A DNA stretch of 31,551 nt from a bacterium (GTDB taxonomy: Bacteria > UBA8248), in assembly GCA_965213685.1 (NCBI GenBank), contig CBDBZY010000034.1, positions 1 through 31,551 of the forward strand, written 5' to 3'. The notes beneath the pieces are model-generated. The model was not told the origin of the DNA, did not search any database, and was given only the letters and a program-made list of their open reading frames with translations. Made by a program: the position numbers and the translations under genes. Positions 842-20,077 of the stretch are shown piece after piece (the first letter of the stretch is position 1; every line of letters begins with the position of its first letter).

Positions 842-2577
<1,736 letters not shown>

Positions 2578-2584
2578 CGCGCGC

Positions 2585-5119
2585 ATGGAGCTCAAAGAGT
2601 ATCAAAGCGCCGCCCTGGAGGCCTTCGCCCGCTGGCGGGACGCGCTGGAGACGGCACAAGCGGAATCGAACGAAGCCGTGGGCGCCCTGGAAGAGAAAGG
2701 GGTGAACGTTCCCGGTGAGGTGCGCGACTACCCCAGGGCCGCATGGGAGAAGCTCAAACAATCCGGCGGCGTGGCGAAAACCGCCAGCGCATACGTGGGC
2801 AGAAAGGACGGCGCCAGGCGTCCCATCCCGCACGTCTGCTTCAAGGTGCCGACCGGCGGGGGCAAGACGCTGCTGGCCGCAGCCGCCCTGGAGAGGCTGA
2901 ACCGGCAAACCGGCCTCACTATCTGGATAACGCCCACCCGCGCCATCTACGGGCAGACGAAGGCGGCTCTCTGGGACAGGGAGCACCCCTACCGGCAGAC
3001 GCTGGAGCGCGCCAGCGGCGGGCGGGTCAAGCTGCTGGAGAAGGACGACCGCTTTACGGCGGCGGACGTGGCCAACCACCTGTGCGTGATGCTGCTGATG
3101 CTGCCCGCCGCCAGCCGGCGGAAGGACAAGGAATTCTTGCGGATGTTCCGCGACTCCGGGCGGTATCCCGCCTTTTTCCCGGACGGAGACGACGCCCTGG
3201 GCGACGGCCGCCTGTTGCGCGACCACCCCGATCTGGAGCGAACCGCCAAGGGCGGCCCCGTGAAGCACAGCCTGTTCAACGTCTTCAAGATGCTGCGCCC
3301 GGTGGTGGTGCTGGACGAGGCGCACAAGGCGTACGGACAAAAGAGGAAGGGGGCGAACGAGGATTTCGTGTACGCCGTGAACCGCCTCAACCCGTGCCTG
3401 GTGATCGAGCTGTCCGCCACGCCCAACCGGGGCATCAGCAACCTGCTGGTGGACATCACGGGAGTGGAGCTGAAAAAAGAGGAGATGATCAAGCTGCCCG
3501 TGCAGGGTGACCTCCTTCACCAACGCCGAATGGCAATACACGCTGGGGCAAGCCCACGAGGAGATGGAGAGGCTGGCCGGGGAGGCGCAGTCGCTCGCCC
3601 ACAGCGCGGGCCGCTACATCCGCCCCATCGCCGTGGTGCGGGTGGAGCGCACCGGCAAGAACCAGCGCGACGGCGAGCGCGTCCACGCCGAGGACGTGCG
3701 CGAGCACCTCGTCCGGAACCTCGGCGTCCCCGCCGACGCCGTGCGCGTGAAATCCGCCGAGAACGACGAGCTGAGCGTCGAGAAGGACCTGCTCTCCGAA
3801 CAATCGCCGGTGCGGTGGATCATCACCAAGGCGGCGTTGATGGAGGGCTGGGACTGCTCCTTCGCGTATCTGCTGGTGATGCTGGACAACGCGCAGAGCC
3901 AGCGCGCCATCACCCAGCTGGTGGGGCGGGGTGATGCGCCAGCCCCACGCGCGCAGGACGGAACGGGAGCGGCTCGACCAGTGCTACGTGTATTGCTGGA
4001 ACACGGACGTGGGCGAGGCGGTCGACCACGTAAAAAAGGGGCTGGAGGAGGAGGGATTGACCGGCCTGGGAGGCGAGGTGACGTCAAAGACGGAATTGCT
4101 GCGCCGCGTCACCGTGAAGCGGCGCGAGCAGTTTCGGGATGCGTCCATCTTCCTGCCGCGCGTGCTGCACGAGGATGGCGACGAATGGGCGGAGCTGGAC
4201 TACCAGCGCCATATCCTGCCCGGCATCGACTGGGAGTCCATCGCGGAGCCCGGCCCGCAAGACGCATCGGCGGAGGAGGCCCGGCGGAAAACGGCGACAG
4301 TGGATGTGGGCGCGCCCGTTTTTCACGGGCCCCAGAAACTGTATGTGGACAAAACGGTGGAAATATCCTGGTTCGCACGCCGCTTGTCCGACATCATGCC
4401 CAACCCCTGGCAGGCGGCCCGGGTCGTTCGGCGGATGCTCGATCGGCTGCGCGCCGACGGCAAGACGGACGATGAAATCCACGACAGGCGCTCCGGTCTG
4501 GCGTTCCATCTGAGGGATCACGTGGCGAGGGAGGTGGAGCGGCGGGCGGAGCGGGTGTTTCGCGAAAAGCTGCGCCGAGGGGAAATCCGCTTTGACCTGG
4601 AGGCGGGGGAGGCCAATTTCCGGATGGTGAAGCGTTACGAAATACCGGCCCCACGAAAGCGACCCCATATTGCTCAGGTATGGGAAACCCATGCAGCTGA
4701 ACCTGTTCGAGCCGATATTCGAGCGCGAATTCGACAGCAAACTGGAGCGCGACTTCGCCCGCTACCTGGACGAGCAAAAGGCGTTGCGGTGGTGGCACCG
4801 GGTGGCCGCGCGCCAGCGCGGGGATTACTACCTGCGAGGCTGGAAAAAGTATCGTATCTGGCCCGACTTCGTGGCGATGGGCTGCGAAACCAACGGCAAC
4901 AGGCGCCATCTGCTGATTTTCGAGACGAAGGGGGAGCATCTGCGGGACAACCCGGATACGGATTACAAGCAGCGGGTGCTGGAGACCCTCGAGAGCGCCT
5001 TCAATAATAACTGCGGAACGATGCGCGTGCGCGAGGGGCCGATGAGAGGCACCTTCCGCCTCGTGTTCCAGGAGCAAGGGTTCGGGGAGGCGTTGAGTGG
5101 CCTGAACGGCGCCTCCTAG
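2585..5119 (+). CDS. res: Type III R-M restriction subunit (Res; SF2 helicase plus PD-(D/E)xK nuclease), three +1 frameshifts near 3505, 3930 and 4650
   Basis: MELKEYQ start, Walker A VPTGGGKT, VVVLDEAH, ELSATP, WIITKAALMEGWD, QLVGRVMR across the shift, C-terminal WPDF...FETKG. Confidence 0.9.
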
Positions 5120-11683: not shown

Positions 11684-13519
11684 TCATACGAACAGGATGC
11701 CATACCCGCATCGCCTCTCGATTCTCCAGGCCGCGCAAAGGGAGAAGCCCAGCAGCAGCGCGAGCCCGCTCGCCTGCGTCCATGTGCCGACAAGCATCGC
11801 GCCCAGCAGGAACATCGCGGAGAAGACAAACAGGCTCAGGGCGACCCACAGGCCGACGAGCGCGAGCACCGGTGCCGCGCGCCCGTCCGCACCGCGCACC
11901 CGGCCCCAGGCGCCCGGCGGCCGCACCTTTTCCCAGAAATTTCTCAGCACGTCCGCCCGGACGGGTCTGGAAAGAAAAGTCGCCGCCAGCATCGCCAGAA
12001 AGCCGACGCCCGCCTCTGCGGCCAGCAGCACGGGAAACGACGGCGGCTCCTCTCCTGCGTGCAGCACAACGGCCGTCGCGCCCGCGGCCAGCATCCCCGC
12101 GATTTCCGTCCAGGCGTTCGTCCGCCACCACAACCAGCGCAGGATCACCGGAAGGCCGAGGCCGGCTCCTAAGGACACGTTGAACTTCCACGCCCACTCC
12201 AGGCTGCTGATCCTGGACGCCACGGCAAACGCGCCGACCGACATCACCAGAACGCCGATGCGGCTGGCGATGATGACCTCCCGCTCCCTGGCGCCCCTGC
12301 GGACAAAGCGCGCATACACGTCGTTGACGAGATAGCTCGCGCCCCAGTTCAGGTGCGTGTCCACCGTGCTCATGAACGCGCCCAAAAGGCCCGCAATCGC
12401 CAGGCCCAGGACTCCCGCCGGCAGGAGATGTCCCATCAGGAGGGGATACGCCGCCTCCCGATCCGCCAGTATCCTGGCCTCCATCGTGCCGGGCAGGGCG
12501 TCCATCCCCCTTGGCACCAGAATCAGGCTCACCAGGCCGACGAGTATCCAGGGCCAGGGCCTCAGGACGTAATTTCCCACCGTGAACCAGAAAGCGCCCG
12601 CCTGGGCGTCCCTGGGCGTCCGCGCCGAGACCAGCCTTTGGCCGATGTAGCCTCCCCCGTCCGCGTTGTTGTGCGCCCACCAGACGACGAACAGGTAGAT
12701 GAGGATGACCTGCGCCCCCGCCCACGCCACGCCCTCGGGCGGCAAAAAGGAGAGGATGTCCGCCGCGCCCTTCGCGCCGTATATCTCCTGCAGCCTCGCG
12801 CCGATGCCGGATAGCCCGCCCACGGCGTCCACGGCATACCAGGCGAACAGGCAGCTCCCGGCCAGTGCGATGACGAACTGGAACAGATCGGTGAGCATCA
12901 CCCCGCGAATCCCGCCCGCACTCGAGTAGGCCGCTATCATGGCGACGAGCAGAACGACGGTGAGGCTCTCGTTGACGCTCCCCATCGTCAGGGCGGCGGG
13001 CCAGCTTCTCTCCACGGCCGCCCACAGCCCGGGAGGCAGAACCTCCTCCCACCGCAAAAACGGATTCGCTATCTTCGCCATGGCGCGAAACACCCAGCCC
13101 AGGACGATCAAATTCACGACGAGGGAGGCGTAGACGGCCTTGAAGCCCCGCAAAAAAGACCCGGGGCCGCTCCCGTATCGCAGCTCCAGGAGTTCGGCGT
13201 CCGTCACCACGCCCGCCTTTCGCCACAAGGGGGCGAAGAAGACCGCGACGCCTACGTTCCCGATGACCCAGGCCCACCAGAACCAGTTTCCGGAAATGCC
13301 CCGATTGGCGACGATGCCGGCCACGACGAGAGGCGTATCCGACGCGAACGTCGTCGCCACCATGGAGGTTCCTATCCACCACCAGGGGAGGCTGCGCTCG
13401 GCCACAAAATAGGAAGCCAGGCTTCTCGAGGCGGATCGGGAGGTCAGCGCCCCGACGCCCATGGCCAACGCGATGTACGCGAGGATGAACGACCAGTCCA
13501 ACGGCGAGAGCATAGTCAT
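11684..13519 (-). CDS. Sodium:solute symporter family protein
   Basis: YFVAERSLPWW, SMVATTFASDTPL, GVMLTDLFQF, AFMSTVDTHLNWGASYLVND. Confidence 0.93.
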   Translation of the reverse strand: MTMLSPLDWSFILAYIALAMGVGALTSRSASRSLASYFVAERSLPWWWIGTSMVATTFASDTPLVVAGIVANRGISGNWFWWAWVIGNVGVAVFFAPLWRKAGVVTDAELLELRYGSGPGSFLRGFKAVYASLVVNLIVLGWVFRAMAKIANPFLRWEEVLPPGLWAAVERSWPAALTMGSVNESLTVVLLVAMIAAYSSAGGIRGVMLTDLFQFVIALAGSCLFAWYAVDAVGGLSGIGARLQEIYGAKGAADILSFLPPEGVAWAGAQVILIYLFVVWWAHNNADGGGYIGQRLVSARTPRDAQAGAFWFTVGNYVLRPWPWILVGLVSLILVPRGMDALPGTMEARILADREAAYPLLMGHLLPAGVLGLAIAGLLGAFMSTVDTHLNWGASYLVNDVYARFVRRGAREREVIIASRIGVLVMSVGAFAVASRISSLEWAWKFNVSLGAGLGLPVILRWLWWRTNAWTEIAGMLAAGATAVVLHAGEEPPSFPVLLAAEAGVGFLAMLAATFLSRPVRADVLRNFWEKVRPPGAWGRVRGADGRAAPVLALVGLWVALSLFVFSAMFLLGAMLVGTWTQASGLALLLGFSLCAAWRIERRCGYGILFV

Positions 13520-13693
13520 TTTCCCGTAAGGGCGGGCGCTTCCCGTATCCTATCAGGGAAAGGAAAACGCGGCGCAACGGATTTTTGACGCCGCCTCCGG
13601 GCGACCCGCAGAGAAGCCCTCCCCGCTCGCACCCGGCGGCGGCCGGACCGGGGAGGGCGGCTGACCCCTCGTCTCTCGCCGCAGCGCGCGATC

Positions 13694-13728
13694 AAAAAAC
13701 GCCCCGCGACGAACCCCCCGGGGCGTTT
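13694..13728 (-). terminator. Intrinsic terminator after the Mo-hydroxylase gene
   Basis: Minus strand AAACGCCCCG...CGGGGCGTTTTTT. Confidence 0.65.
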
Positions 13729-13761
13729 CCTGTGGCGAGAGGCGCTGTGCGGCGCGTTCGC

Positions 13762-16011
13762 CTAGCCGCGCGCGCCATTCCCCCGGAGACGGCCCAGCGC
13801 CTCCATGACATGATCGGGGGTGATGGGTATGCGCGTGATGCGCGCGCCGATCGCCTGGCCAACCGCGCAGGCCACCGCCGCGGCCGCCGCCGTGCAGGGC
13901 GGCTCGCCGATTCCCTTGGCCCCGTAAGGCCCGAGCCCCTCGCCGGATTCGAATATGACGTTGTCCCACTCGGGCGTATCGACCGAGGTGGGAATGAGGT
14001 ATCCGTGAAACTCGTTGTTGAGCAGCGCGCCTTTTTGCGTGAGCACCTCCTCGGACAGGGCGTGGCCAACGCCCATCATCGCGCCGCCCTCGAACTGCCC
14101 CTCCACGTGCTGCACGTTGATGGCCTGGCCGACGTCATGGCCCGACCAGTAGTTGAGCACGCGAAGCTCGCCCGTCTCGACGTTCACCTCCGCCTCTGCG
14201 GCGTGCACGCCAAACACGTAATCCATCCAGCCGCCGGCGTCGCCATATTGCTCATTCCCCTCGAACTCGTGGACGCCTATCTTCATCTTGCCCACCGTGT
14301 GCAGGTCGACCCCCATCTTCTTGCAGTGGGCCACGGCCTCGACGAAATCAACGCCGCGCTCCTCGGCGGCCTTGACGAAAACCCTTCCGTCGCCAACGTC
14401 CAAATCCTCCGGCGCGACCTCGAGCAGCTCGGCGGCCCCCCGCAGCACCCTGTCCCGCAGCTCGGCCGCCGCCCGGTAGCAGGAGCCCCCCGAAATCATC
14501 GTCTGCCGGCTGCCGGCCGTCACCCCCACGAGCGGGGTGACGTGCGAGTCCGACATCGTCACCGTCACGTCCTCCAGACGGACGCCCAGGGCCTCCGCCG
14601 CGATCTGGCGATTCGTCTGCGTCTGGCCCGCACCGACGTCGGAGGCACCCGTGCGCACGCTCACGCTGCCGTCGGCGTCGATGGACACATACACCTCGCC
14701 CTCGTTGCGGGGCCTCCCATAGCCGCCCACATTCGCGACGACCCCGACGCCGGCGCGCCAGGGGCCGTGGTCTTTCTCCGGGGCGCGGCCCGCCGGGCGG
14801 CCGATGAGCGCCTTGATCGCCTCGGTCAGCTCGGGCAACATCACCCGCGAGGGCACGGGCTGGTTTTGCATGAGGGTCGCGCCCTTTGTGATGAAATTCC
14901 TCTCGCGAAACTCCAGGGGGCACATCCTCAGACGGTCCGCCAGCGCATCCATCTGCGCCTCGTAGGCGAAACACACCTGGTTCGCCCCCACCCCGCGCAT
15001 CGCCTCGGTGAAGGGGTTGTTCGTCCGCACCGCGCGGGAACGGCCCCTCGCGTTCGGAATCTCGTAGGGCCCGCCGCTCACGACGAGCGCACCCAGAAGC
15101 AGTCCCTTGCTGTTGGCCGCATATCCGCCCGCATCGCCGATGATGTCCACCTCTATCGCGGTGAGCTTTCCCTCTTTCGTGGCCCCGGTCTTGTAGCGCA
15201 TCAGGAAGGGATGCTTCTTGCTGCCGCTGTCCATGGTCTCTTCGCGCGAATAGGCCATGCGCACGGGCCGTCCCGTCCGGATGGCCAGCAACGCCATGAA
15301 GGCGCCCAGGAGCGGGTGCTCCTTCCCGCCGAAGGCCCCGCCCAGCATCGGGCATTCATATCGAACGCGGCTCAGCGGCAGGTCCAGCGTCCGCGCCACG
15401 TTCTGGTAGTTCTCTATCATCTGGGTGGGCACGCGGATGTTCACCACGCCGCGCTCGTCCACCCAGGCCACCCCGCCTTCCGGCTCGATGAACGCATGGT
15501 CGAGGCAGGCGGAAAAATAGGCGTTCTCCACGATCACGTCCGCCGCCTCGAAGCCGGCGGCCACGTCTCCCTTCTCCGTTTTCCAGTCGCAGACCACCTC
15601 CCCCTCCTCCAGGGAGGTGAAGTCGTACGCACCGGGCATCGGCTCATACGCGACGTCGACGAGTGCGGCCGCCTCCTCCGCCAGGTCCCGGGTATCCGCA
15701 GCCACGAGGGCTACCGCATCGCCGATGTCCACGACGACGTCCTCGGCGAGGACCGGAAAATCCGGATACCGCCCGGCGTTTTTCCCCGGAATGTCCTTCG
15801 CACTCAAGACACAATGCACGCCTGGCAGCGCGAGGGCCTTGCTCGCGTCTATCTTCTTGATTTTCGCCGGCGTCATCGACGCGCGAACGACCTTCCCGTA
15901 AATCTCGCCGGGCATATGGAAATCATCGCCATACACGGTATCGCCGACGACCTTCGCCAAGGCGTCGTCTTTTGTCGGCGACGTGCCGACATGCGTCATC
16001 CGAGCCATCAT
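13762..16011 (-). CDS. Xanthine dehydrogenase family molybdopterin-binding subunit
   Basis: Hammerhead N-terminus, HAFIEPE, PTQ, LGGAFGGK, AMRGVG, TAGSR, GAKGIGEP. Confidence 0.93.
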   Translation of the reverse strand: MMARMTHVGTSPTKDDALAKVVGDTVYGDDFHMPGEIYGKVVRASMTPAKIKKIDASKALALPGVHCVLSAKDIPGKNAGRYPDFPVLAEDVVVDIGDAVALVAADTRDLAEEAAALVDVAYEPMPGAYDFTSLEEGEVVCDWKTEKGDVAAGFEAADVIVENAYFSACLDHAFIEPEGGVAWVDERGVVNIRVPTQMIENYQNVARTLDLPLSRVRYECPMLGGAFGGKEHPLLGAFMALLAIRTGRPVRMAYSREETMDSGSKKHPFLMRYKTGATKEGKLTAIEVDIIGDAGGYAANSKGLLLGALVVSGGPYEIPNARGRSRAVRTNNPFTEAMRGVGANQVCFAYEAQMDALADRLRMCPLEFRERNFITKGATLMQNQPVPSRVMLPELTEAIKALIGRPAGRAPEKDHGPWRAGVGVVANVGGYGRPRNEGEVYVSIDADGSVSVRTGASDVGAGQTQTNRQIAAEALGVRLEDVTVTMSDSHVTPLVGVTAGSRQTMISGGSCYRAAAELRDRVLRGAAELLEVAPEDLDVGDGRVFVKAAEERGVDFVEAVAHCKKMGVDLHTVGKMKIGVHEFEGNEQYGDAGGWMDYVFGVHAAEAEVNVETGELRVLNYWSGHDVGQAINVQHVEGQFEGGAMMGVGHALSEEVLTQKGALLNNEFHGYLIPTSVDTPEWDNVIFESGEGLGPYGAKGIGEPPCTAAAAAVACAVGQAIGARITRIPITPDHVMEALGRLRGNGARG

Positions 16012-16035
16012 TCCCTCCAGGCAACACCCCGAAAA

Positions 16036-17034
16036 CTACCCGCGAACGGACGCCACCTCCACCACCTGCCCCGTGTTCGCGCTCCTCACAACCGCCTCCA
16101 GCACGGAGACGACCTCGAGCCCCTCCGGCCCGCCCGTTTCGGGAGTCGCCTCTCCCCGGATGCATCTGCAAAACTCATCCATCTCATCCGCCAGGGCGTC
16201 GCCGCCCACGACGTCGACCTCGCTCCGCGCCTCCTCGCCCGCCTTGGCCACATACAGCTTCGCGCCCTCCTCGACGCTGTAGGCCCGCATCTGCGTGCCG
16301 AAGGCCGCCGTATCGCAGATTTTGGGGACCACGAAAGAGGTTCCGATATAGCCCAACGGGCCGCTTTCATATTCGATGATGATGCTCGTCATGTCGTCGA
16401 GATTCGTTTTCCCCAGCAATTTTTTGCTGAACGCGCACACCCTTTTTGCGGCGCCGGCCAGATACTGCAAGTTATCGACCATGTGGACGCCAAGGCCCGT
16501 CATCGAGCCCGCCGGACACTCCTCGGCGTCATTGCGCCAGCCCTGCTTGGGCGCGAATCCCATGGGAAGCGAGAGGTTGGCCTCCACCTGGTGCAGCATC
16601 CCCAACGCGCCGCTGTCGATCATCTCCCGAATCTTCCGGTTCGCACCGAACCGGCGACGGTGATGCCCCACCTGCAGGGTTACGTTCGCACCCGAGGTCG
16701 CCTCCACCGCCTTTTTCGCCTCATCGGCGGTCAGGGTAAGCGGCTTTTCGACAAACACGTGCTTGCCGGCCGACGCCGCCTGGGAGATGATGTCGAGATG
16801 CGTGGAGTGAGGCGTCGCGATGAGGACGCCGTCCACCTCCGGGTCCTTCCATATGTCATCCAGGCTGGCCGCCGCCCGGCAACCGTATTTCTCGGCGAAC
16901 GCCTTGCGGGCGTCCTCACTGCGCGCGAAGCCCGCAACCACCTCGCCGGAACCACTCCGATTCAACGCATCCGCCAAAACGCCGGCCCACCAGCCAAGCC
17001 CGATAGAGGCGAGGCGCACCTTGTCCGTAGCCAT
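16036..17034 (-). CDS. Gfo/Idh/MocA family oxidoreductase
   Basis: IGLGWWA, IATPHSTH, GKHVFVEKPL, VGHHRR, LGVHMVD. Confidence 0.93.
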   Translation of the reverse strand: MATDKVRLASIGLGWWAGVLADALNRSGSGEVVAGFARSEDARKAFAEKYGCRAAASLDDIWKDPEVDGVLIATPHSTHLDIISQAASAGKHVFVEKPLTLTADEAKKAVEATSGANVTLQVGHHRRRFGANRKIREMIDSGALGMLHQVEANLSLPMGFAPKQGWRNDAEECPAGSMTGLGVHMVDNLQYLAGAAKRVCAFSKKLLGKTNLDDMTSIIIEYESGPLGYIGTSFVVPKICDTAAFGTQMRAYSVEEGAKLYVAKAGEEARSEVDVVGGDALADEMDEFCRCIRGEATPETGGPEGLEVVSVLEAVVRSANTGQVVEVASVRG

Positions 17035-17175
17035 GTTTGATCCCTCATTTCTGGAATGTGCGAATTCCCAACGCCTCGTAGACGCCGCGTAGCTCCCATG
17101 CGGGATTCACCATAACCCAACATGGTGCGATTGAAAACCGCGCGGGGGGCATGGCGTCGACGAAAATCGAGCCCC

Positions 17176-17206
17176 AAAAAAAATCTCCCCCCCTTGCGGG
17201 GAGGAG
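17176..17206 (-). terminator. Intrinsic terminator
   Basis: 9-bp stem, GCAA tetraloop, U8 tail. Confidence 0.8.
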
Positions 17207-17330
17207 GTTCTCGCGGGGAGGATGCGTGCGAGGGGTATGATGGCGTGGCGGAGGAGCGCCGACCCAATCAGCGACTCCTCGCGCCGGCCGACCAGGTCGT
17301 GCCGCCTATGAACGCCCTGACCAGCGCTCC
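17176..17330 (-). ncRNA. Candidate sigma54-dependent small RNA (~155 nt), family not recognised
   Basis: Predicted +1 at 17330 from the -24/-12 promoter; successive hairpins; ends in CTCCTCCCC-GCAA-GGGGGGGAG + A + T8; no credible ORF. Confidence 0.65.
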
Positions 17331-17340
17331 TCACAAAGGA

Positions 17341-17356
17341 AGCAAACGCCGTGCCA
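17341..17356 (-). promoter_or_regulatory. Sigma54 (-24/-12) promoter
   Basis: Minus strand TGGCACG-GCGT-TTGCT, an exact match to TGGCACG-N4-TTGCW. Confidence 0.85.
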
Positions 17357-17383
17357 TTTTGCTTGAATTGACAACCCCTTTTA

Positions 17384-17465
17384 TATCAACAAGATAGAAG
17401 GACACAGCAAAGATGGAATTGTCATTTTGTCATATGCGGGATGCGGAGCGTGACAAATTGTCACG
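17384..17465. promoter_or_regulatory. IHF-like site plus two putative enhancer (UAS) sites for a bEBP
   Basis: TATCAACAAGATA (17384-17396, one mismatch to WATCAANNNNTTR); TGTCATTTTGTCA (17420-17432) and palindrome CGTGACAAATTGTCACG (17449-17465), cores 31 bp apart. Confidence 0.6.
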
Positions 17466-17501
17466 GCGCGCCGTCATGAGTCCGGGCGGAATCTCCCGTT
17501 T

Positions 17502-19055: not shown

Positions 19056-20077
19056 CTATGGCCGCTCGGCCTTCGGCGGCCTTGACATCAGGGAGGCCAA
19101 CGCATCTTCTGTGTTGCGGCCATCAAACAATATGGCGTTGACCTCCCGGCACAGGGGCATATCCACGCCAAACGCATCCGCCAGCCCCACGGCGGCGGGG
19201 GCCGTGGACACCCCCTCGGCGACGGCCGTCATGGACGCCAGGATTTTCTCCAACGGCTCGCCTCTGCCCAGCCGCAGGCCCACGGTCCTGTTTCTGCTCA
19301 AATCGCCCGTGCACGTGAGCACCAGGTCTCCCATTCCCGCGAGGCCTGCGAACGTCTCGGCCTTCGCGCCCATCGCCAGGCCGAGGCGCGTGATTTCCGC
19401 CAGGCCGCGCACGATGAGCGCCGTCCGCGCGTTATGGCCAAGCTCCATGCCGTCGGAGACGCCCGCCGCCACGGCGATGACGTTCTTGAGCGCCCCGCCC
19501 AGCTGCGCGCCGGTGGGGTCCGCGCCCGTGTACACCCGGAAATGGGGGACGGAAAACGCCTCCTGAATCACCTGCGCCGCATCGGAGTCCTCCGACGCCG
19601 CCGTGATGGCCGTGGGCTTTCTTTCCGCGAGCTCGCGGGCGAACGTAGGTCCCGAGAGGCAAGCGAGCGCGCCCCGCTCCCTGCCCGCCGCACGGACGCA
19701 CTCGGAGATAATCCGGGTGGGCAGGCACAGGGTATTCTCCTCCACGCCCTTGGTCGCGCTCGCGAGGATCGCCCCCCTCGTGCACCGAGGGCGCCAGCCG
19801 CGTCCACACCCCCCGCACCACGTGGCTCGGCATCACGCTCACGAGAATGTCCTGGCCCGCCGAGGCCGCCTCCGCCAAATCGGACGTGAAGCGCAAGTTT
19901 TCATGGAGGGGGGACGCCCGGCAGATACATCGGATTTTCACGGCGCGACGCCATGCGAGCGCAAAGGTCCGCCTCAAAAACCCACAGCGCGACCTCATGG
20001 CCGGCGGCGGAAAGCAAATCCGCCAGCGCCGTCCCCCAGGCGCCCGCGCCTATCACCGAAATCCGCCGCAGCGTCAT
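19056..20077 (-). CDS. gpsA: NAD(P)H-dependent glycerol-3-phosphate dehydrogenase, two +1 frameshifts (~19910, ~19775)
   Basis: [66 protein letters not shown]; ATG overlaps the upstream TAA (TAATG). Confidence 0.93.

Follow-up and report, generated by a model that had tools for sequence, protein, structure and literature searches.

The window, by which we mean the whole stretch of 31,551 nucleotides of DNA that was analysed, carries on its minus strand a cluster of genes that begins with a Gfo/Idh/MocA oxidoreductase gene, and, upstream of this gene, a predicted structured RNA of about 155 nt with a control region of its own. The promoter candidate ahead of the oxidoreductase gene is conserved in alignments, and the extent of the RNA is predicted from the spacing to its promoter, its fold, its terminator and a covariance model.

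11684-13519 (-): SSF symporter gene
13762-16011 (-): gene for an XDH-family Mo-subunit, after the Gfo gene
16036..17034 (-): Gfo/Idh/MocA oxidoreductase gene, the first gene downstream of the RNA
17109..17137 (-): sigma-70-like promoter candidate of the Gfo/XDH operon (TTTTCA, 17 nt, TATGGT)
17176..17330 (-): predicted RNA of about 155 nt that reaches from the presumed +1 to the last U of the terminator

Among the open reading frames scanned in the cluster (11684-17034, minus strand) there is no gene for an Fe-S or FAD subunit, and no gene of the cluster reaches an NCBIfam cut-off. Elsewhere in the window, a gpsA-like gene for an NAD-dependent glycerol-3-phosphate dehydrogenase (19056-19998, minus strand) is divided over two overlapping frames, the N-terminal part at 19432-19998 and the C-terminal part at 19056-19745, a split that could reflect a frameshift or a sequencing error. 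On the plus strand, a DNA methylase gene followed by a gene for a type III restriction Res-like helicase (942-5007) likely forms a restriction-modification unit. The assembly as a whole (G000, in which the window is contig C34) contains 49 contigs with a G+C content of at least 0.58, which total 3.07 Mb and thus come to about the size of the relatives' genomes, and a further 22 contigs with a G+C content of 0.33-0.54, which total 4.9 Mb and carry repeated elements; this low-G+C fraction does not look as if it belonged to the window's organism.

Structure and conservation of the RNA

Five elements make up the RNA, here given from its 5' to its 3' end, with the pairing figures taken from an alignment of 39 copies.

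17287..17325 (-): P1, a long 5' hairpin with apical AGGCGGCAC; 94.2% paired, with compensatory changes in 9 of 16 pairs
17247..17285 (-): P2, hairpin GGCG-GAGGAG...CUCCUC-CGCC with apical CGAUYGGNUCG; 95.2% paired
17233..17246 (-): single-stranded linker ACGCCAUCAUACCC, of which ACG..UYAUY is kept across the family
17210..17232 (-): P3, CUCGC/GCGAG with a C-rich 13-nt loop ACGCAUCCUCCCC, in the window's genus only
17176..17206 (-): intrinsic terminator CUCCUCCCC-GCAA-GGGGGGGAG, followed by A and U8; compensatory changes in 6 of its 9 pairs

A first reading of the window, made from the sequence alone, had described at this place a complete, unannotated, non-coding unit of about 155 nt, and this description is supported by the terminator, by the fold and by the conservation of the unit. 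Against the covariance model, the RNA of the window scores 147.5 bits over 17174-17331, and folding of a 156-nt stretch gives -78.7 kcal/mol (z = -3.68), a stability that is equalled by none of 200 shuffled sequences. The GCAA-loop terminator with U8 that the sequence-only reading had proposed is present as a stem of nine pairs, seven of them G-C, at 17206-17185, followed by an A and then by T8 at 17183-17176; it is conserved in 39 of 39 copies, where it is 99.1% paired, and its U tract is long in every one of them. Likewise present is the long hairpin that had been drawn as GAGGAG-CGCUGA/UCGGCG-CUCCUC, which lies at 17280-17251 inside P2. Both strands of P2 are nearly invariant, such that 7 of its 17 pairs never vary and 3 are changed on both sides, and the apical CGAUYGGNUCG is conserved as well.

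Two other parts of the earlier picture had to be revised. The hairpin GAGCGCU/GGCGUUC, with which the transcript had been thought to open, is 76.2% paired across the 39 homologues, which is below its own shuffles, and only 1 of its 7 pairs is changed on both sides; we therefore dropped it, and its place is taken by the longer covarying hairpin P1, whose helix GCUGGUCAGGGCG/CGACCUGGUCGGC pairs 17325-17313 with 17299-17287 around the loop UUCAUAGGCGGCA, and whose apical AGGCGGCAC is invariant throughout the family. The CUCGC/GCGAG hairpin, to which an exposed anti-Shine-Dalgarno loop had been ascribed, survives in part: the stem (17232-17228 with 17214-17210) and the C-rich loop (17227-17215) do exist in the window, but they are confined to the window's genus. 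Nowhere in the RNA is conservation lower than in this loop, and in other genera the corresponding segment is unalignable, variable in length or missing. What all 39 copies do share in the 3' third of the RNA is a run of 8-14 nt that consists of pyrimidines only and that mostly coincides with the 5' arm of the terminator, which in the window is pyrimidine throughout.

In the same 39 copies, 95.8% of the cells of the alignment are in standard pairs and compensatory changes, i.e. changes on both sides, are seen in 23 of the 49 pairs, values that must be read in the knowledge that the alignment was fitted to the covariance model and hence leans towards this structure. None of 500 shuffles reaches the observed values, and controls in which the pairing was slid along the alignment are 43-53% paired.

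The homologues that provide this covariation extend over the family to which the window belongs. By BLASTN, the query 17040-17480 matched every one of the 22 further genomes that belong to the genus, and it had no match in 18 genomes from elsewhere. The covariance model, which was built from 28 copies of the RNA, gave hits in 37 of the 51 phylum genomes, and every hit falls within the window's family; with the window's own genome excluded, the count is 36 of 41 genomes of the family and 0 of 9 genomes outside it, and by this measure 7 of the 9 genera of the family possess the RNA. In the five family genomes without a match, the best hit around the Gfo orthologues has E = 0.31 with the filters of the model switched off. 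One genus without the RNA comprises four small genomes of low G+C content, in which the Gfo orthologue is present and in which no RNA appears even with the filters off. The second no-match genus is represented by a single genome (L090), in which the contig breaks off at 220 nt upstream of the Gfo orthologue, within an apparent 3' half of the terminator (a G-rich arm and a U tract). Since this contig ends in terminator-like sequence, the genus may have the RNA after all.

Beyond these genomes, a scan of a species-level genome collection for exact 20-mers returned 33 stretches, among which 23 loci carry the RNA and the others are chance matches in unrelated taxa. A scan with a gapped motif added at least 3 RNA-bearing loci, among the 78 new loci that were listed and checked with the model, and all 3 are labelled Nitrospinota, Nitrospinae or Tectomicrobia. 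The records bearing the RNA are labelled Nitrospinota, Nitrospinae, Candidatus Tectomicrobia or simply 'bacterium', among the matches listed. The sequence had not been recognised in the sequence-only reading, and it corresponds to no Rfam family: over the whole window, no Rfam match reaches its gathering score in a set that comprised Qrr, GlmY/GlmZ, CrcZ, Pxr, AbcR and 4227 others, and the best match below threshold (17.4 bits against a threshold of 49.5) covers the terminator alone.

The control region and its candidate activator

Upstream of the RNA, the following elements can be discerned, the first as an exact motif match that is borne out by alignments of relatives, the next two from the alignment of relatives, and the last from an alignment by eye.

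17341..17356 (-): sigma-54 -24/-12 promoter TGGCACGGCGTTTGCT, TGGCACG-N4-TTGCT
17420..17432 (-): proximal upstream activator element TGACAAAATGACA, candidate
17451..17463 (-): palindromic distal upstream activator element TGACAATTTGTCA, at which the enhancer-binding protein may bind
17377..17390 (-): conserved A+T-rich block GTTGATATAAAAGG, mostly ATTGATAAATAAGG in relatives

The exact minus-strand TGGCACG-N4-TTGCT on which the first reading had built is found at 17356-17341, and a motif scan with TGGCACG-N4-TTGCW yields it as the single match in the window at one mismatch or fewer. Given that 0.22 such matches are expected in the window by chance, and that 20 of 100 shuffles contain at least one, the motif is not significant alone; we count it as real because it is kept in relatives. 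The -24/-12 pattern TGG[CT]A[CT]-N5-TTGC stands ahead of 38 of the 43 RNA copies, and the distance from promoter to RNA is constant in these 38, bar one with an intervening partial duplication. The five copies that lack the promoter are the second copies near the SSF symporter gene, to which we return below. From the usual spacing to the GC of the -12 element, transcription of the RNA would begin at about 17330. The unit and its structure, together with the conservation of its promoter and its terminator, are directly visible in these alignments. In one genome of the genus (L018), the assembly of which contains the RNA locus twice, the sigma-54 promoter is separated from the RNA by an insertion of about 70 nt that duplicates the RNA's 5' end.

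One or two elements of the form TGAC-N5-TG[TG]C are located 65-121 nt 5' of the promoter in 34 of the 38 promoter-bearing copies, and the remaining 4 have close variants of it; within the high-G+C contigs of the window's genome, the pair of upstream elements is unique to the RNA locus. Between these elements and the promoter sits the A+T-rich block, which may resemble the IHF consensus and could be a bending site of the IHF type. Judged by its sequence, the control region of the RNA is the standard layout of a sigma-54 promoter.

A promoter of this kind calls for its sigma factor and for an enhancer-binding protein. The rpoN gene, the presence of which had been left for checking, is found in the window's genome and in 41 of 42 genomes of the family. 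True enhancer-binding proteins in the window's genome number two. The first is an NtrC-type response regulator of REC-AAA-HTH architecture, encoded away from the RNA locus and adjoining a dCache/PAS histidine kinase. The second, of GAF-AAA-HTH architecture, has its gene some 6 kb upstream of a further sigma-54-like motif, TGGCATCCCTTTTGCA (L097, at about 94152 of contig C13 of the assembly), behind which come genes with Usp and RimK domains; this second motif is probably the target of the GAF-type protein.

An orthologue of the response regulator, with 70-85% identity over nearly the full length, occurs in 36 of the 37 RNA-bearing genomes, and it is present also in the genome whose RNA has possibly been lost at the contig end (L090). 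In the RNA-less genus, all four genomes retain rpoN as well as the GAF-type protein and have no orthologue of the response regulator, their best match to it being 47-48% identical in the AAA part only. By elimination, there being two candidates, and because of its co-occurrence with the RNA among related genomes, the NtrC-type response regulator is thus most likely the activator of the RNA promoter. As to RNA-binding proteins, Hfq, ProQ and CsrA were not found in the window's genome, which is 94% complete; a check for hfq, which the first reading had asked for, thus returned no match.

Proposed mode of action and its alternatives

On balance, we lean towards the view that the RNA is a stand-alone regulatory RNA, driven by sigma-54 and activated by a response regulator, that acts post-transcriptionally on other transcripts; of this, the activator's identity, the RNA's autonomy from the operon downstream and the way in which it acts are what we infer. 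In the mechanism that we propose, a kinase/response-regulator pair encoded elsewhere in the genome would drive the RNA, with the response regulator binding to the two upstream TGAC-N5-GTC-like elements and thereby switching on the sigma-54 promoter. Transcription would stop at the strong intrinsic terminator, and the product would fold into P1, P2, the linker, a variable C/U-rich part (in the window's genus, the hairpin with the C-rich loop) and the terminator. Either the pyrimidine-rich 3' segment or the invariant AGGCGGCAC loop would then, most probably, pair with purine-rich ribosome-binding regions, and it would do so without Hfq.

Such pairing would be in keeping with the way in which the RNA appears to be built, namely like a trans-acting regulator with a universal pyrimidine tract complementary to Shine-Dalgarno sequences, and a repression of translation in trans is plausible on these grounds. 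The anti-Shine-Dalgarno idea is, however, weakened by the fact that the pyrimidine tract lies mostly inside the terminator stem, that the exposed loop is specific to one genus, and that Hfq, ProQ and CsrA were not found. When the Gfo leaders of 34 genomes, Gfo being the sole target tested, were searched for perfect complementarity of at least 7 nt, we obtained scattered matches with no recurrent site, and RNAduplex, run with whole RNAs against the Gfo translation-start regions, gave long meaningless duplexes.

The invariance of both P2 strands and of the P1 loop would fit a fold that binds a protein or a ligand at least as well as it would fit a pairing seed. It is therefore conceivable, if to our minds unlikely, that the RNA stands alone but does not work through base pairing at all, its invariant two-hairpin core titrating a protein or sensing a small molecule in the manner of GlmY and CrcZ. 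That the P2 strands and the P1 apex are nearly invariant across genera, where simple helices could covary, speaks for this possibility, as do the failure to find Hfq and ProQ and the fact that no conserved pairing to the neighbouring Gfo mRNA was seen. Nevertheless, no partner protein is known, CsrA was not among the proteins found, and the GGA motifs of the RNA are inside stems. The universal pyrimidine tract is, moreover, more typical of pairing RNAs. Elements of both readings could perceivably be combined, the RNA being the single direct output of a dedicated kinase/regulator/sigma-54 pathway, with the P1/P2 core as a new protein- or ligand-binding module and the pyrimidine tail as the effector, a proposal that we put forward as speculative.

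A stand-alone gene, whether or not it acts by pairing, has to be weighed against a role in cis. We initially favoured a riboswitch-like leader, because second copies of the RNA sit upstream of the SSF symporter gene, and we now hold it to be quite improbable. The sigma-54 promoter would in this case regulate the Gfo/XDH(/SSF) cluster through a cis-acting leader or attenuator, in which the structured RNA and its terminator constitute a riboswitch-like or protein-controlled transcription stop, and the terminator would be read through under inducing conditions. In every primary copy, genes for an M50B-like membrane protein and for a hypothetical protein of 251 codons are found upstream and the Gfo/XDH operon downstream, and all primary copies lie on the same strand as Gfo, with a spacer of 106-279 nt between terminator and Gfo, as a leader would; some read-through from the RNA into the operon may take place. 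In five genomes of the genus, the second copy follows after about 5.5 kb and immediately precedes the cluster's SSF gene, a pattern that would be expected of a cis element. The sequence conservation of P1 and P2 is, furthermore, aptamer-like, and there is a likeness between the P2 3' arm (CUCCUCC) and the terminator's 5' arm, with alternative pairings to G-rich strands that can be drawn.

Although the window's genus allows these antiterminator-type pairings to be drawn, they are, in an alignment judged by eye, not kept in the most distant genus, where the 5' arms of P2 and of the terminator are not complementary. No helix closes the putative aptamer between its 5' and 3' ends, and the long U tract of the terminator in every copy likewise argues against a leader. 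An objection of another kind comes from another genus, in which an extra copy (L078) is complete with upstream elements, promoter and terminator of its own, yet is followed by no co-directional gene. It faces instead a convergent gene, which we judge to be real because its third-position G+C is 0.915 as against 0.743 in the opposite frame. This complete copy facing a convergent gene is the reason why we read the RNA as a stand-alone gene and not as a leader.

Two further observations demoted the leader, and the first of them concerns the very copies that had suggested it. The second copies (L022-L026) follow an inserted gene with an ARPP-1 domain or, in L026, a DDE transposase gene in its stead, and between them and the SSF gene come a further hairpin that looks like a terminator and a variable stretch of 120-670 nt. 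In these copies the -24 GG at the right spacing has been lost, and the body of the RNA is kept, with compensatory changes in P1.

The second is that a promoter-like motif of the operon's own is conserved between terminator and Gfo, in a spacer that itself varies in length (106-279 nt): in the genus it reads TTTTCA-17 nt-TATGGT, and in the other genera TTGATCTATTGT and similar sequences are found in the spacer. In the window, the motif at 17109..17137 stays below the threshold of a consensus scan. The genus that has Gfo and no RNA carries, at the corresponding place and directly after the upstream gene, the near-consensus TGTTATAA, and because this motif persists where the RNA is absent, we consider it very likely that the Gfo/XDH operon has its own promoter of the sigma-70 type. 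The motif conserved between terminator and Gfo is followed by a covarying hairpin. In the 5' leader of Gfo (17040-17108 of the window, minus strand, and the spacers of L002-L029) this hairpin is accompanied by a conserved GGGAATTCATCCATTCAG-like block before the ribosome-binding site, and the two may form a separate regulatory element of the operon. Altogether, the comparative data speak for a gene that stands alone rather than for a leader that belongs to the Gfo/XDH operon.

That the transcript codes for a small protein is scarcely credible, for although three ORFs (75, 101 and 91 codons long) run across the RNA region and have TBLASTN matches in relatives, these matches are explained by nucleotide conservation, the ORFs extend through the terminator, their G+C is flat over the codon positions (0.57-0.70 at the third position, as against 0.82-0.86 in neighbouring genes), and the homologues differ by indels of 1, 2 and other non-triplet lengths that break every frame. 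The flat G+C and the non-triplet indels make the RNA unit non-coding, in agreement with the earlier statement that it contains no credible ORF.

Significance and comparison with known systems

We thus return to a stand-alone, sigma-54-driven regulatory RNA as the reading that we prefer. It would be the first well-supported regulatory RNA for an uncultured and poorly studied lineage, and among the publications searched none links Tectomicrobia with an sRNA or a non-coding RNA, nor did a broader search show anything on the lineage among the matches listed. Its sigma-54 control region is complete and conserved, a plausible dedicated two-component system stands above it, and since the genome has two enhancer-binding proteins, a full elucidation of the sigma-54 network is within reach. 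In addition, the alignment of 39 sequences allows the RNA to be added to RNA family libraries.

The principle as such is already known, in that small RNAs under the joint control of a response regulator and sigma-54 occur in Vibrio, in enterobacteria, in Pseudomonas and in Desulfovibrio. The sigma-54-dependent small RNAs under regulators of the NtrC class include Qrr with LuxO, GlmY with GlrR, NrsZ with NtrC and CrcZ with CbrB. Qrr of Vibrio consists of several hairpins with an intrinsic terminator, is the main output of its signalling pathway and depends on Hfq. The likeness to the Qrr/LuxO pair is considerable in outline, an NtrC-class response regulator and sigma-54 leading in both cases to a short RNA of several hairpins with a terminator, and the response regulator of the window's genome scores against the LuxO model, albeit below its cut-off. 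Nonetheless, the RNA described here has no Rfam match, it differs from Qrr in sequence, size and lineage, and Hfq, which Qrr needs, was not found.

GlmY of enterobacteria is a target of GlrK/GlrR and sigma-54 and acts by titrating a protein. In both cases, a small RNA is the target on which a two-component system acts through a sigma-54 activator; in contrast to our RNA, however, GlmY is not known to be linked to a Gfo/XDH cluster, there is no match between the two in sequence or model, and no RapZ-like partner is known here. A third comparison concerns RsaE/RoxS, RepG and AbcR, the exposed C/U-rich stretches of which pair with purine-rich ribosome-binding sites, and in some hosts such pairing through C-rich loops does not strictly need Hfq. 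These RNAs differ from ours in that the hairpin with the C-rich loop is here restricted to one genus, the tract being elsewhere mostly the 5' arm of the terminator.

The remaining parallel is drawn from Desulfovibrio vulgaris Hildenborough, for which four sigma-54-dependent non-coding RNAs are reported, with no function assigned to them (PMC3333781, PMC4641369). Some of these are controlled by the response regulators DVU0653 and DVU0679, and they adjoin genes (PMC3333781, PMC4641369). In those cases the RNA directly follows the gene of its regulator, whereas in the window's genome the regulator is encoded elsewhere. By their descriptions, the Desulfovibrio RNAs are the same kind of unit as the RNA described here, each in a little-studied lineage.
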